Part shown: positions 35,913 through 39,740 of the stretch, piece by piece
Position numbering within the stretch: position 1 is the first letter of the stretch
Layout: every line of letters starts with the position of its first letter
DNA from: Nannocystis bainbridge
GTDB taxonomy: Bacteria > Myxococcota_A > Polyangia > Nannocystales > Nannocystaceae
Direction of reading: 5' to 3'
Length of the DNA: 64,000 nucleotides
Assembly (NCBI RefSeq): GCF_028368995.1
Contig: NZ_JAQNDL010000005.1
Coordinates: 128,001 to 192,000 of the forward strand
The notes under the pieces: generated by a model
What the model was told of the DNA's origin: nothing
The model's database searches: none
The model's input: only the letters and a program-made list of their open reading frames with translations
Made by a program: the position numbers and the translations under genes

Positions 35913-37094
35913 GTGCCGGATCTGACGAGCCGCACCGTCACAAGCTTGGCGAGCGTCGACGCCGCGTCATGGGACGCGCTCGCTCACGAGGGCTGCCCCT
36001 TTCTAAAGCACGGGTTCCTGCGGGCGCTCGAGCTGTCGGGCTCCGTCGGCGACGAGCCGGGTTGGCGGCCGATCTACGTGCTCGTCGAGCAACACGGCGC
36101 CGCCGGCGCAGGGTCGGCGCCGCGCCTGGTCGGTGCGGCGCCCACGTACGTCAAGCGCCACAGCTACGGCGAGTTCATCTTCGACTGGGCGTGGGCGCGG
36201 GCGGCCGTGCAAGGCGGCCTGCGCTACTACCCCAAGCTGGTGATCGCCGCGCCGATGACCCCGGCCACCGGTCCCCGCATGCTGATCGCCCCCGACTGCG
36301 CGCGCGACGAGATCGTGCCTCGCCTGGTCGCCGGCGTGCGCGACGTCGCGGAGGCCGAGCGCTGTTGGTCGATCCACTGGCTGTTCACGACGGCGCGCGA
36401 GCACGACGAGCTGGCCGCGCTCGAGTTCATGCGCCGCGCCAGCTACCAGTACCACTGGCACAACGAGGGCTACGCCGACTTCGAGGCTTTCCTCGCCACC
36501 ATGACCTCGCGAAGGCGCAAGCAGCTCCGCAAGGAGCGCGCCCGGGCCCGCGAAGGCGTCGACGAGCTCGAGTGGGTCCGCGGCCCCGACCTCGGCCCCG
36601 AGGACCTGGTCGACATCGACCGCTACTACCGCAGCACCGTGCGCGCCTACGGCGGCCTCGACTACCTTCAGACAGGTTTCTTCGACCATGTCCACAAGGC
36701 CATGCCCGAGCAGATGCTGTGGGCCCGGGCCCGTCGCGGCGGCCGGACCATCGCCGGCACCCTCTACTTCGAGACCGACGCGGCGCTGTTCGGCCGCTAC
36801 TGGGGCTGCGACGAGAACGTCCCGTTCCTCCACTTCGAGGCCGCCTACTACGCGGCGATCGAGCGCTGCATCGCCCGCAAGACCCCGCGCTTCGAGGCCG
36901 GAGCGCAGGGCGAGCACAAGCTGCTGCGAGGCTTCGCGCCGGCGCGCACGTACAGCAGCCACTGGTTCCGCCACCCGGGCCTGGCCTCGGCCGTCGGCCG
37001 CTTCCTCGCCGAGGAGTCGGTCGCCGCGCACGAACAGATGCGCGAGCTGGAAGAGTACCTGCCCTTCCGCAGCGAAGAGCCCGAGCCCGAGTGA
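35913..37094 (+). CDS. FemAB-like GNAT-fold protein (DUF482 family)
   Basis: HSYGEFIFDWAWA, YYPKL, GRYWG and FEAGAQGEHKL.RGF motifs. Confidence 0.9.
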   Translation: MPDLTSRTVTSLASVDAASWDALAHEGCPFLKHGFLRALELSGSVGDEPGWRPIYVLVEQHGAAGAGSAPRLVGAAPTYVKRHSYGEFIFDWAWARAAVQGGLRYYPKLVIAAPMTPATGPRMLIAPDCARDEIVPRLVAGVRDVAEAERCWSIHWLFTTAREHDELAALEFMRRASYQYHWHNEGYADFEAFLATMTSRRRKQLRKERARAREGVDELEWVRGPDLGPEDLVDIDRYYRSTVRAYGGLDYLQTGFFDHVHKAMPEQMLWARARRGGRTIAGTLYFETDAALFGRYWGCDENVPFLHFEAAYYAAIERCIARKTPRFEAGAQGEHKLLRGFAPARTYSSHWFRHPGLASAVGRFLAEESVAAHEQMRELEEYLPFRSEEPEPE

Positions 37095-37239
37095 CCCGCG
37101 AGCACGAGTGACCACCGAGCCCGAGCCCGAGTGACCCGCGGCGCGCGCCGAACAAGTCACTCGCCGGCGCGCGCCGAACGAGTCACTCACTCCCGGCGAG
37201 CGACCCGGCGGCTCTTCAGCCCTCGCGTCCTCTCGCCGC

Positions 37240-37951
37240 TTACTCGTGCTCGCGCGACGCCGCGTTCGGATCGAGGTCCTCGAGAAAGCCCCGCGCGAAC
37301 CGGCGGTACGTCATTCGCGTGTCGCGCCGGTGGTCGACCACGACATCGCCCTGGACCTGGATCGTCCGGATCTTGTCGCCGCGCATGCCGCTGCCGGCCT
37401 GGGCCTTGCGTTCCGCGCAGCGACCCGCGCGCTCGGCCTCGCGGCGCTCCGCCGCCAGCCGCGCGCGCAACAGCTCGAGCGCCGTCTCGCGGTTGATGCT
37501 CTGGCTGCGACCGCCGTCGACGCGCACGTGGTGACCGCTCGGCTTGTGGCGCAGGTGCACCGCCGTCGAGGTCTTGTTGCGGTGCTGTCCGCCTTTGCCG
37601 CTGCCGCGGCAGAAATCCTCCTCGAGGTCCTCCGGACGGATCTCCACCGCCATCGCCGCCGCCGGCTCGAGCACCACCACCGTCACCGTGCTCGAGTGGA
37701 CGCGGCCGCGCTTCTCGGTCGGCGGCACCCGCTGCCAGCGATGACCGCCCGCCTCGTCCGCGAACCACCGCCGCGCCGCGCCGCCGGTCGCCTTGAAGCA
37801 CAGGAACCCCGGGCGCGCGTCGATCACCTCGAGGTCAAAGGCGCTCCCGCACGGCCAGCTTCTGGTACACCGCGAACTGCTCGTGCACGAGCAACTTGGC
37901 GTCGTCGCCGCCCTCGGCGGCCCGGATTTCGATGATGAGCGTGGTCTTCAT
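37240..37951 (-). CDS. Class I peptide chain release factor paralogue lacking domain 1, expressed via +1 frameshift (~236 aa)
   Basis: Frame 1 MKTTLIIEIRAAEGGDDA...RERL ends at CTT TGA C (37840-37834). The +1 frame continues DLEVIDAR...EAGGHRWQRVPPTEKRGRVHSS...GSGKGGQHRNKT...RSQSINR...GDKIRT and ends in TAA. Confidence 0.85.
37834..37849 (-). promoter_or_regulatory. prfB-type programmed +1 ribosomal frameshift cassette
   Basis: CGGGAG-CGC-CTT-TGA-C, the same geometry as the canonical prfB AGGGGG-NNN-CUU-UGA-C. Confidence 0.85.
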
Positions 37952-38058
37952 GGCTGCCTGTCCGGCCGCGCCGTCGCAAACGCGAAGCGCCACCCGGGCC
38001 GGCGCGGCCTCGATCCGCGAAGATCGGCTGCACCCGGATGGCGCGAAGGACAGGACGC

Positions 38059-38133
38059 TCAACCGCGACCGACGAGCACGCCGCCGCGCACCTGGAGGGC
38101 GCGGACGGAGCGCAGGCGGATCGCGGCGCGCAT
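38059..38133 (-). CDS. Putative leader peptide (MRAAIRLRSVRALQVRGGVLVGRG, UGA stop)
   Basis: ATG 9 nt after the -10 box; ends immediately before a structured region upstream of the RF paralogue. Confidence 0.5.
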   Translation of the reverse strand: MRAAIRLRSVRALQVRGGVLVGRG

Positions 38134-38142
38134 GACGGGGGG

Positions 38143-38171
38143 ACAATACTCGCGGCCCGGCGGCCAGGCAA
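38143..38171 (-). promoter_or_regulatory. Sigma70-like promoter of the leader/RF-paralogue unit
   Basis: TTGCCT-N17-TATTGT. Confidence 0.6.
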
Positions 38172-38177
38172 GCCGCC

Positions 38178-39740
38178 TCAGCCCGGATCGATCGGCGCGC
38201 ACTTGAACTCGACCTCGATCTCGGCCTCCTTGTCGTTCTGGACCGCGACGCAAGTCTCGGGGCACAGCACCACCTTGCCGTCGTCGAGGTAGAACGAGCC
38301 CGGTCCGCACCCGTCCGCGGCCGGCACCTGCTTGAACACCTCGGCCTCCATCGCTTCCATCGGCGTGAACTTGACCACCACCGAGTCCTCGTCGAGCTCC
38401 TTGCCCTCCGGCGGCGGCGGGATGGCGAAGTCGCACGCGATGGTCGCGTCGGCGATCACCCCGCCGGCCAGCGCCTGGAACAGCGCGTCGTAGGTGTTCG
38501 TGTCGCACAGCGGGAAGCGCAGCGCCCCCGTCGCCACCGACAGGCTCTGGTGACCGATCCCGCCGTTGACCCCGCTCGGGCATTTGGTCGTCACGATCGG
38601 GTCCTCCGCCGAATACGGGTCATCCGCCGGATCGTTGAACGACAGCCCGACGATGCTGTAATAGCTGTAGTTGCGGGTCTCGGGCGTCGGCCCGAAGTGC
38701 AGCGGCGACAGCTCGCGCAGCTTCGCGTCGAACTTCTCGGCCGCGTTGGCCCCGCCGGCGATCGTGTTGTTGTCGTTGTAGTGGTCGTTGCCGTGCGAGC
38801 AGACCACGCGGTCGTCCGACACCTCGACCATGATCTTGAACGCCTCCGGGCGCAGCCACGCCTGCCAGCCCTTCGGCGCGAACTTGAAGAGGTCCTGCTG
38901 GGCCCCGTTGAACGTGTCGAGCATGCGGCACCACGAGTCGGTGCTGTCGATCTCCACGCTGTAATGATAGAACTTGCCCGGGTTGTTGATCGGCTGGCTC
39001 GGCGGATTGGTGCAGCCGCCCTTGGGGATCCCCGACAGCGGCGCCTCGATGCACACCTGCGTCGACGAGTACTTGCCGTAGCGCGAGATGAGGATGACGC
39101 GGTAATCGAGCCCGCTCGCCGCCAAGATCTCGGCGAAGTTGTCGTTGATGTTGTCCTGCACCCCTTTGATCTCGGCCGCCATGCTGCCCGAGTTGTCGAT
39201 CACGACGATGATGTCGACCGGGCGCGGCACCAGCACCGGCACCGCCGACTGGGTCCCGCACGCCGACGGCATCACCTGACACTGCGCGGAGCAGCCGCTC
39301 TCCGGCCCGTTGAGCCAGCCGAAGTCGCACTCCTCGCCCGGGCCCGGCATGCCGTCGCCGCACACCTCGAGCACGCAGCCCACGCCGCAGCCGATGCCGA
39401 TGCCGTTGTGATCGCCCGCGTCGCACGCCTCGCCCGGGTCGACGTTGCCGTCGCCGCAGAACGGCGCCGCCGGCTCCCCCGAGCTCGTGCTGCCCGTCTC
39501 GCCCCCGCTCGTGCTCGCGTCGCCGGTGGACGCGCTGTCCGAGCCGCTGCCCGCGGACGTCGTCCCCGTCCCGGCCGACTGCGACGATTCCATGTCCGTC
39601 GTCGTCGGCAGCGGCGGCGGCGATTGAGTGGCCTCGGTCGTCACGCCGAAGCCGCTCTCGCTCGCCGAAACCTCGGCGCGGTCGCCGTTGCACCCGGCGA
39701 GCAGCGCGACCGTCGTCCCCACTTCGAACATTCTACGCAT
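38178..39740 (-). CDS. Lipoprotein with myxobacterial Cys-rich (DUF4215-like) repeats and vWA domain
   Basis: LAGC lipobox, CGDG..DPGEACD repeats and DIIVVIDNSGSM. Confidence 0.82.
   Translation of the reverse strand: MRRMFEVGTTVALLAGCNGDRAEVSASESGFGVTTEATQSPPPLPTTTDMESSQSAGTGTTSAGSGSDSASTGDASTSGGETGSTSSGEPAAPFCGDGNVDPGEACDAGDHNGIGIGCGVGCVLEVCGDGMPGPGEECDFGWLNGPESGCSAQCQVMPSACGTQSAVPVLVPRPVDIIVVIDNSGSMAAEIKGVQDNINDNFAEILAASGLDYRVILISRYGKYSSTQVCIEAPLSGIPKGGCTNPPSQPINNPGKFYHYSVEIDSTDSWCRMLDTFNGAQQDLFKFAPKGWQAWLRPEAFKIMVEVSDDRVVCSHGNDHYNDNNTIAGGANAAEKFDAKLRELSPLHFGPTPETRNYSYYSIVGLSFNDPADDPYSAEDPIVTTKCPSGVNGGIGHQSLSVATGALRFPLCDTNTYDALFQALAGGVIADATIACDFAIPPPPEGKELDEDSVVVKFTPMEAMEAEVFKQVPAADGCGPGSFYLDDGKVVLCPETCVAVQNDKEAEIEVEFKCAPIDPG

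Follow-up and report, generated by a model that had tools for sequence, protein, structure and literature searches.

A short RF1-type release-factor gene of Nannocystis bainbridge with a prfB-type +1 frameshift site, and its relatives in bacteria and huge phages

Nannocystis bainbridge, a myxobacterium from soil, carries a short release-factor (RF) gene which is divided over two reading frames. It lies on the minus strand of the 64,000-nucleotide stretch analysed here (the window; C5:128001-192000 of an assembly of 11.05 Mb). The two frames meet at a CTT TGA C sequence behind a Shine-Dalgarno (SD)-like motif, the arrangement known from prfB, which encodes RF2. Comparison with related genes makes a programmed +1 frameshift at this CTT-TGA very highly probable. 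With less confidence, we consider it likely that the gene is real and expressed by recoding, and that its product is a fourth class-I RF paralogue, an auxiliary terminator used under termination stress.

To our knowledge, programmed +1 frameshifting at CUU-UGA-C has been regarded as peculiar to prfB. The present analysis suggests instead that the cassette is a portable regulatory module: in bacteria and huge phages, about 100 distinct genes of another RF family are gated by it. These genes would encode a class-I factor which lacks domain 1 and whose supply would be tied to termination efficiency, and they open a direct experimental way to ask how cells and phages gauge their capacity for termination. 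While the cassette itself is known, its use in an RF1-type family without domain 1, the relaxed choice of the stop codon and the distribution between phages and bacteria are new as far as found. No description of the family or of its frameshift was found by full-text literature searches, nor in the passages searched of a PrfH paper (PMC1586002), a 2016 recoding review (PMC5009743), a survey of RF evolution (PMC6514570), the 2026 PrfH-CT paper (PMC12829566), the GeneTack survey (PMC3711429) and PMC12421855; supplements lay outside this search, and Table S1 of PMC12421855, on prfA pseudogenes, could bear on the matter.

The two-frame gene and its shift site

The upstream open reading frame (ORF0; 37835-37951, minus strand) starts with the ATG at 37951, comprises 38 codons followed by TGA, and reads MKTTLIIEIRAAEGGDDAKLLVHEQFAVYQKLAVRERL*. 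Its whole length (37835..37951) corresponds to the beginning of RF domain 2, namely the first strand and helix alpha-5 (MKTT..EIRAAEGGDDAKLLV..RERL). On the minus strand, the local string at the break is CGG GAG CGC CTT TGA C. An SD-like GGGAG (37844..37848) is separated by the three-nucleotide spacer CGC from the shift site (37834..37840), which is composed of the slippery CTT (37838-37840), the TGA (37835-37837) and a C (37834). A C at the +4 position after a stop codon is a weak-termination context. The second frame (ORF1; 37240..37836, minus strand, +1 relative to ORF0) comprises 198 codons and a TAA, and encodes the remainder of domain 2, domain 3 with its GGQ motif, and domain 4. Its translation runs DLEVIDARPGF...GGHRWQRVPPTEKRGRVHSS...GKGGQHRNKT...RSQSINR...GDKIRT... 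up to the TAA. One four-base step at CTTT joins the two frames into a product of 236 residues with the junction ...RERL-DLEVIDAR. Features of the prfB-type cassette found at this gene are an ORF0 stop with a continuation in the +1 frame, CUU-U, an SD-like motif and a C after the stop. The two-frame gene that had been proposed from the letters alone is thereby confirmed, the +1 frame continuing the RF1-like protein with no alignment gap.

The string GGAGNNNCTTTGAC is found once in the window, against 0.04 occurrences expected from shuffles, and twice in the 11-Mb genome. At the second occurrence (C4:711627-711640, L319) a monooxygenase-like gene ends normally (..APGEVL*) and is followed by a TetR-family gene. 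The terminator of the gene under study, identified by translation, is TAA (37240..37242, minus strand). This codon is atypical locally, as had been noticed at the outset: TGA terminates 24/24 long high-GC3 ORFs of the window. Either factor, RF1 or RF2, can read TAA. TAA is also the commonest terminator of the family, ending 29/47 genes from bacteria and metagenomes and 24/50 viral genes.

Pooled and dereplicated, the family provides 103 unique sites, 53 from bacterial genomes and metagenomes and 50 from viral contigs. The P-site codon is CTT in 102/103, an SD-like 4-mer of the GGAG type lies upstream at the same place in 83/103, and C occupies +4 in 86/103. The conservation of a prfB-type SD-N3-CUU-UGA-C site in the DNA of homologues bears out the original prediction and argues that the site is programmed. 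The stop codon itself is more variable, with 77 TGA, 21 TAG and 5 TAA. A column-wise count over 54 unique sites showed CTTT to be invariant save for one base; 54/54 Leu codons have T as their third base whereas other third positions vary, and the third codon positions inside the SD-like motif are conserved above the others. In the same 54 sites, codon periodicity follows frame 0 upstream and frame +1 downstream, and the switch falls exactly at the shift site.

Members that are open in a single frame include P0105 from a protein database, L182 and L120. These three branch from within the frameshifted clade, and where the others have CTT they carry CTC or GTC. The shift looks ancestral in the family tree and secondarily lost in these members, as in prfB.

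The similarity to prfB is close. Both share the same cassette: an internal GGAG-type SD-like motif lies 3 nt ahead of a P-site CUU, the A site receives a stop codon, and a weak C follows at +4. In both, the ORF0 product is non-functional alone and in-frame relatives are devoid of the signals. The differences concern the product and the place of the site. prfB encodes RF2, whereas this gene encodes an RF1-type factor without domain 1 and with PPT instead of SPF; the site of prfB lies in domain 1, whereas that of the short factor lies in domain 2, at the position of the conserved Trp of RF1. The stop codons also differ. A survey published in 2025 and covering more than 12,000 genomes gives, in the parts seen, 98.6% TGA and no TAG among 8,164 prfB motifs, against UAG in 21/103 and UAA in 5/103 sites of the short-RF family; the same parts state that no programmed shift was found in prfA (PMC12421855).

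The encoded protein and its paralogues

The joined protein matches the RF1 model NF001859 in a single stretch, over positions 105-319 of 347 (E 7.5e-57; 193 bits, cut-off 400), and scores 175.5 bits against a cut-off of 423 on TIGR00019, also a model of RF1. The match to the RF2 model is much weaker (112 bits). The PrfH model TIGR03072 gives 70.2 bits against a cut-off of 166.65, and the ArfB model matches weakly (4.4e-11), over only 36 residues around GGQ. Pfam recognises the C-terminal half of PCRF and the RF-1 domain. Taken separately, ORF0 matches positions 105-137 of the RF1 model, while ORF1 matches positions 172-321 of the NCBIfam RF1 model and, in Pfam, PCRF 159-194 together with RF-1. 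Among solved structures, the best matches are RF1 chains: residues 5-216 of the query align unbroken to residues 88-304 of Thermotoga maritima RF1 (PDB 1rq0; E 4e-39), whereas the PrfH structure 7sa4 is matched at 1.4e-7 only. The predicted fold is fixed by these sequence matches. As the protein begins four residues ahead of the RF1 alignment, domain 1 is absent. In canonical factors this domain contacts RF3 and the L11 stalk.

The elements of RF1 which are involved in decoding can be located on both sides of the shift. The 38 residues of ORF0 align to the RF1 strand and to the helix bearing the EIRxGTGGEEA tip. According to the alignment to RF1 structures, EIRAAEGGDDA (codons 8-18 of ORF0; 37898..37930, minus strand) is at this place, and we take it to be the counterpart of the RF1 alpha-5 tip which reads the first stop-codon base. 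The motif is kept as E[IV]RAAEGGxDA in relatives down to about 50% identity. The Leu of the shift site aligns to the conserved Trp of the RF1 '..KGW' in domain 2. Further downstream, PPT (residues 76-78 of the joined protein; 37717..37725, minus strand) stands where RF1 has its PxT 'tripeptide anticodon'. It belongs to the decoding loop QRVPPTEKRGRVHSS, which nearly equals the loop QRVPVTESGGRIHTS of T. maritima RF1. The peptidyl-tRNA hydrolysis motif GGQ (residues 120-122; 37585..37593, minus strand) is invariant in alignment A1. In 53 family members the tripeptide is PPT in 35, PPN in 9, PPS in 3, SPT and PET in 2 each, and PPG and SST in 1 each.

These alignments support the proposal of an RF paralogue with RF1-type PPT and GGQ, without domain 1 and with its shift site inside domain 2. 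Compared with RF1 (prfA), its best sequence match, the factor shares the PxT-type loop QRVPPTE..GR.H(S/T)S, the GGxD tip, GGQ and domain 4. It differs from it by the missing first ~100 residues (domain 1), by scores below the cut-offs, by its position in a clade apart from full-length RF1 and RF2, and by its need for recoding, the survey cited above having reported, in the parts seen, no programmed frameshift in prfA (PMC12421855). With PrfH (also RFH, the partner of RtcB2), it shares the status of a class-I paralogue without domain 1 and a sporadic distribution. In contrast to PrfH, it keeps the RF1 decoding loop, has no rtcB neighbour at the loci examined and scores low on TIGR03072. With ArfB (YaeJ) it has the GGQ domain in common, whereas ArfB has no codon-recognition domain and carries a basic C-terminal tail, and the short factor has domains 2 and 4, with PCRF present.

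Other release factors are present in the same genome. The separate prfA and prfB that were expected were both found. The prfA gene is full-length with PAT and GGQ, and prfB (L003, on C1) is itself frameshifted, its ORF0 MNDAAHILPEHNKVTEQLARLAHRLNELRRHL* ending in CGGAGG CAT CTT TGA C. The use of this cassette by prfB indicates that the ribosomes of the organism handle it. An rtcB-prfH pair lies at C1:2904656-2906346 (L005), with the PrfH-like gene directly downstream of the RtcB gene (C1:2905312-2906346); this PrfH-like gene reaches 158 bits on TIGR03072 over model positions 2-200, just below the cut-off. The six RtcB matches of the genome are all on C1 and C2 and none is on C5, in agreement with the absence of an rtcB neighbour from the window. 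Since the genome has its own prfA, prfB and rtcB-prfH, the gene studied here is a fourth class-I paralogue and not PrfH, as had been argued from its sequence.

Databases do not yet reflect this family. NCBIfam has no model for it. For Nannocystis, nr lists only the downstream ORF of 196 residues as 'peptide chain release factor-like protein' (proteins 92% identical), which is the truncated annotation that had been foreseen. Since databases keep only this downstream ORF, a systematic annotation error is exposed. A survey of RF evolution lists, in its section 2.4, only RF1, RF2, ArfB and PrfH for bacteria (PMC6514570).

Occurrence in bacteria, metagenomes and huge phages

Among bacteria, relatives were collected in a set of 41 genomes, including that of N. 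bainbridge. Orthologue-level matches were obtained in 9/10 other genomes of the genus, in one further genus of the family and in one genome of another family of the class. In this set all orthologue matches start at query residues 30-39, that is, at the break. The DNA around the break was compared at 12 loci, and 10 of them have GCGGGAG-NNN-CTTTGA(C/G) with varying spacers and flanks. At 49% identity, the genome G032 has GGGGGGT-CTT-TAG-C at the break.

A scan of a species-genome collection returned 80 loci and was swamped by canonical RF1. The six of highest identity (L035-L039 and L047) were examined, and the other 74 (37-45% identity) were taken as RF1 without individual check. CTT TGA is present in 6/6 of the examined loci, which belong to Nannocystis, two Sandaracinaceae and three metagenome-assembled genomes (MAGs): one of Myxococcales, one of a 'proteobacterium' and one labelled Bacteroidales. 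The gene is rare in Myxococcota, being found at E<=1e-40 in 4/401 genomes of an even sample of the phylum, its own genome included. CGT CTT TGA C is found at each of the three other loci of this sample. Two of these (L116 and L117) retain it although ORF0 is extended before the shift site by an insert of 15-35 residues; the insert of L117 is a threefold repeat of MRPASTA.

Contigs from three soil runs span the shift site with 0 gaps. One of these bridging contigs comes from a relative of about 94% identity, and its sole nearby change is in the spacer codon. This bridging gives weak but consistent support, as the best holder may be the source sample. The run X17, labelled metatranscriptomic and flagged as probably DNA, served as a source of contigs only.

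For metagenomes, the scan used the pattern EKRGRxx[TS]ST[VI]TV, which lies 41 codons downstream of the shift site and is thus blind to it. It yielded at least 120 stretches, 80 of which were taken as loci. A +1 shift is needed in 36/80 loci, with 24 TGA, 11 TAG and 1 TAA. In L139 alone, CCT TGA C replaces CTT TGA C at the shift site, which lies behind CGGGGGCGT. In 13/80 loci an in-frame TGA is found instead of the shift (L127, L133, L136, L141, L145, L149, L156, L157, L167, L169, L175, L192 and L197), and 5/80 are domain-1-less and open in frame, with L164 being odd. A canonical RF1-type motif was found in 18/80 loci, and 8/80 were unscorable.

Relatives number 2,586 in a protein database and at least 412 in the viral contigs of IMG/VR. 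The best 80 of the viral relatives, on contigs of 5 to 619 kb, include 54 which need the +1 shift, 11 with an in-frame stop (L239, L240, L281, L287, L288, L301, L302, L304, L306, L315 and L317), 3 which are open and 12 which were unscorable. The same organisation is found in unannotated GenBank records of huge phages: LR745208.1 (485 kb) has CGGAGGGGT CTT TGA C at the same place, and LR745206.1 (635 kb) has two in-frame stops instead of the shift site.

The in-frame-stop genes encode RF1-type factors without domain 1 and require no frameshift. Their stop is TGA in 23/24, and TAG in L239. In 9/13 of the metagenome loci TGA replaces the conserved Trp of 'G-W', and in L239 and L240 the in-frame stop is at the exact position of the shift-site stop. 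A comparison of ORF lengths under genetic codes 4 and 11, a test which is weak for GC-rich loci, left the ORFs neighbouring L145, L149, L157 and L175 unchanged; the standard code is therefore favoured for these four loci. The class looks like a gene-specific read-through gate and not like the product of recoded genomes.

Trees were computed quickly with IQ-TREE and with FastTree (150 rows); their roots are arbitrary and a placement of RF2 inside RF1 is not meaningful. The FastTree phylogeny sets the canonical RF1 and RF2 rows apart in a clade of their own (local support 98%). Copies from bacterial genomes are scattered among those from viral contigs, this label changing 10 times, with at least 5 changes forced by well-supported branches. 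The Nannocystaceae clade (97%) adjoins viral contigs at 88-89% support. Furthermore, in 8/12 viral loci examined the gene lies at most 2.5 kb from tRNA genes (up to 8), in or beside tRNA arrays on contigs of 58 to 619 kb (L239, L240, L243, L246, L250, L251, L259 and L264). Other viral neighbours are mostly ORFans; the 4/25 with a Pfam family are a DNA methylase, a LAGLIDADG endonuclease, a GNAT protein and a thaumatin-like protein. The short-RF family is mainly a huge-phage gene family. Virus-borne termination-factor genes which need recoding have been described, in the parts seen of Jeudy et al. 2012 (PMC3521657), in Mimivirus and Megavirus; these differ in being genes of eukaryotic viruses with mixed bacterial and eukaryotic termination schemes.

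In Nannocystis the surroundings look cellular. The neighbours comprise FemAB_like, ClpS, ClpA and a lipoprotein, of which FemAB_like and ClpA recur at another Nannocystis locus. The window has no tRNA array, the nearest tRNAs being 12 kb off. Because of these cellular neighbours and the missing tRNA array, we regard the gene in Nannocystis as stably resident on the chromosome in this genus, within a mostly phage-borne family. At loci outside Nannocystis the neighbours are Dus, TatD, a methyltransferase and kinases. No RtcB is found among 36 neighbouring ORFs of six loci.

Response of the gate and surroundings of the gene

The anatomy of the cassette and its use by prfB in the same genome lead us to take +1 slippage in competition with termination, aided by the SD-like motif, as the mechanism. 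Ribosomes would start at the ATG at 37951 and read 38 codons; CUU would then occupy the P site, with UGA-C next to it in the A site and GGGAG paired to the anti-SD of 16S rRNA. If the UGA is not quickly read by RF2, the peptidyl-tRNA-Leu would slip from CUU to UUU (+1), and translation would proceed from GAC onward to the TAA at 37240. The full-length factor would rise when termination at the shift stop is slow and be low otherwise. For prfB, passages of PMC5009743 and PMC12421855 describe frameshifting at CUU-U-stop as dependent on the supply of release factor. For the present gene, the balance of the evidence leans towards an expression coupled to termination efficiency. Coupling to RF2 scarcity is supported by the TAA at the end of the gene, which is also readable by RF1, and this stop would keep the synthesis of the factor independent of RF2.

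The product, made under termination stress, would most likely release peptides at UAA and UAG without RF3. Such an RF3-independent activity is expected because the RF1-like decoding elements (Q-R-V-P-P-T-E...H-S/T-S and the GGxD tip) and GGQ are combined with the absence of the RF3-binding domain. Judged from its motifs, we give a stop-codon-dependent release activity of the 236-residue protein even chances. A wider scheme can be put forward only tentatively. Short RF1-type factors gated by recoding, either by a CUU-UGA/UAG/UAA shift or by an in-frame stop, might represent a widespread termination-stress system of huge phages and some bacteria. They would be made only when canonical termination at the gate fails (for example on RF depletion, inhibition or stop-codon suppression in a phage-host conflict) and would then serve release at the other stops, with no need for RF3. 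On this view Nannocystis would have domesticated a copy for cellular use, one which wires an RF1-type backup to RF2 activity.

Several observations weigh against the mechanism and role proposed for the Nannocystis gene. The variable shift stop (UGA 77, UAG 21, UAA 5) bars RF2-specific sensing as the logic of the family, since the gate is not RF2-specific across it. The original prediction of a sensor of RF2 shortage is thus partly supported: it fits the Nannocystis gene with its UGA and does not extend to the family as a whole. The gate would sense termination at whichever stop is present, or would only throttle expression, with RF2 being relevant for the Nannocystis gene only. An RF1-type factor would not relieve stalls at UGA, which weakens its role as a backup for RF2. 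The T of PxT is replaced by N, S or G in 13/53 members, so that codon specificity is uncertain. The SD-like motif is absent in 20/103 sites, for example CTCCAC and CACAAACGT. In one orthologue (L006; G007:C2:912969-913583) two 1-nt homopolymer deletions, AA to A and TTT to TT within the shift site, create a different frame pattern. A comparison of the 36 flanking ORFs with Pfam revealed no partner conserved beyond the genus, hence no hint to function, and no RNA run containing the gene was found.

The interchange of stops, the tripeptide which does not follow it, its N, S or G variants and the missing relief of UGA keep two alternatives alive in which the gene is recoded for other reasons. The short factor could, as in prfB, terminate at its own shift-site stop and limit its own synthesis, with the canonical factors as bystanders. 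prfB, the only case of the cassette to have been characterised, works by self-regulation; in 26/103 sites the stop is UAG or UAA and could be recognised by an RF1-type decoder, and a factor reading all three stops would explain the tolerance of any stop. We nevertheless consider this quite improbable, because 77/103 sites, including that of the Nannocystis gene, use UGA. By the tripeptide-anticodon rule, UGA should not be readable by an RF1-type PxT loop, which we count against autoregulation. Nor is the tripeptide correlated with the stop of the shift site: PPT occurs together with TGA in 25 cases, with TAG in 9 and with TAA in 1. On the quick IQ-TREE phylogeny the TAG label changes 10 times, at least 4 of them forced, and UGA and UAG interchange with no matching change of the tripeptide. 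The tolerance of UAG and UAA itself makes self-regulation doubtful, as prfB, which is autoregulated, shows TAG in 0/8,164 genomes in the parts seen of PMC12421855, unlike the short-RF family. The other alternative is a constitutive throttle, in which the shifty stop fixes a low yield of a potentially harmful factor and nothing is sensed. Acceptance of any stop codon in the family would fit this well, and so would the in-frame stop gates which substitute for the shift in 13/80 metagenome and 11/80 viral loci. An RF without domain 1 may also be toxic if abundant, toxicity on overproduction being reported for RF2 and less for RF1 in passages of PMC12421855. However, frameshifting at a stop inherently competes with the release factor, and some sensing is unavoidable according to the portions seen of the prfB literature (PMC5009743, PMC12421855). 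The weak C at +4 (86/103) and the SD-like motif (83/103) speak for selection of a responsive and efficient site and not for mere leakiness, and a weak promoter or ribosome-binding site would be simpler. A pure throttle is in our view unlikely, yet to be taken seriously.

Two further explanations dispense with the frameshift altogether. Translation could end at the TGA and re-initiate, or start independently, at a GTG which sits 3 codons past the shift in the Nannocystis gene, yielding a 195-residue protein without the first 38 residues; gene callers and nr indeed list a downstream ORF of 196 residues. This split gene is very improbable, since no ATG, GTG or TTG is present at codons -4 to +8 in 78/103 sites, the invariant CTT-T has no role in re-initiation, the first 38 residues include a domain 2 strand as well as the conserved alpha-5 tip, and the natural in-frame members P0105, L182 and L120 fuse both parts. 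A pseudogene or an assembly indel, for which the orthologue of G007 with its two homopolymer single-base deletions could be invoked, is hardly credible. That genome is 80% complete and in two contigs, and its copy may reflect a noisy assembly or decay. By contrast, the +1 architecture with CTT-T-stop recurs at 103 unique sites with identities down to about 45%, purifying selection acts on both parts with codon periodicity in both frames, and independent contigs from three soil runs bridge the site with 0 gaps. An indel error, which had been named among the findings that would overturn the idea, is thereby answered.

Downstream, the gene faces a convergent FemAB-like gene. The spacer between the two (window 37077-37254) contains the direct repeats GAGCCCGAGCCCGAGTGACCCGCG, present twice, and CGGCGCGCGCCGAAC(A/G)AGTCACTC, also present twice, together with five inverted-repeat pairs. 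A T-tract terminator was looked for in this spacer and none was found, and a scan for promoters and terminators over 37000-38400 likewise found nothing. In one soil-metagenome contig (run X3), 35 nt corresponding to window 37219-37253 are skipped, and with them the final codons of the gene and its TAA. The contig probably represents a strain variant between the arms of the inverted repeat pair I1.

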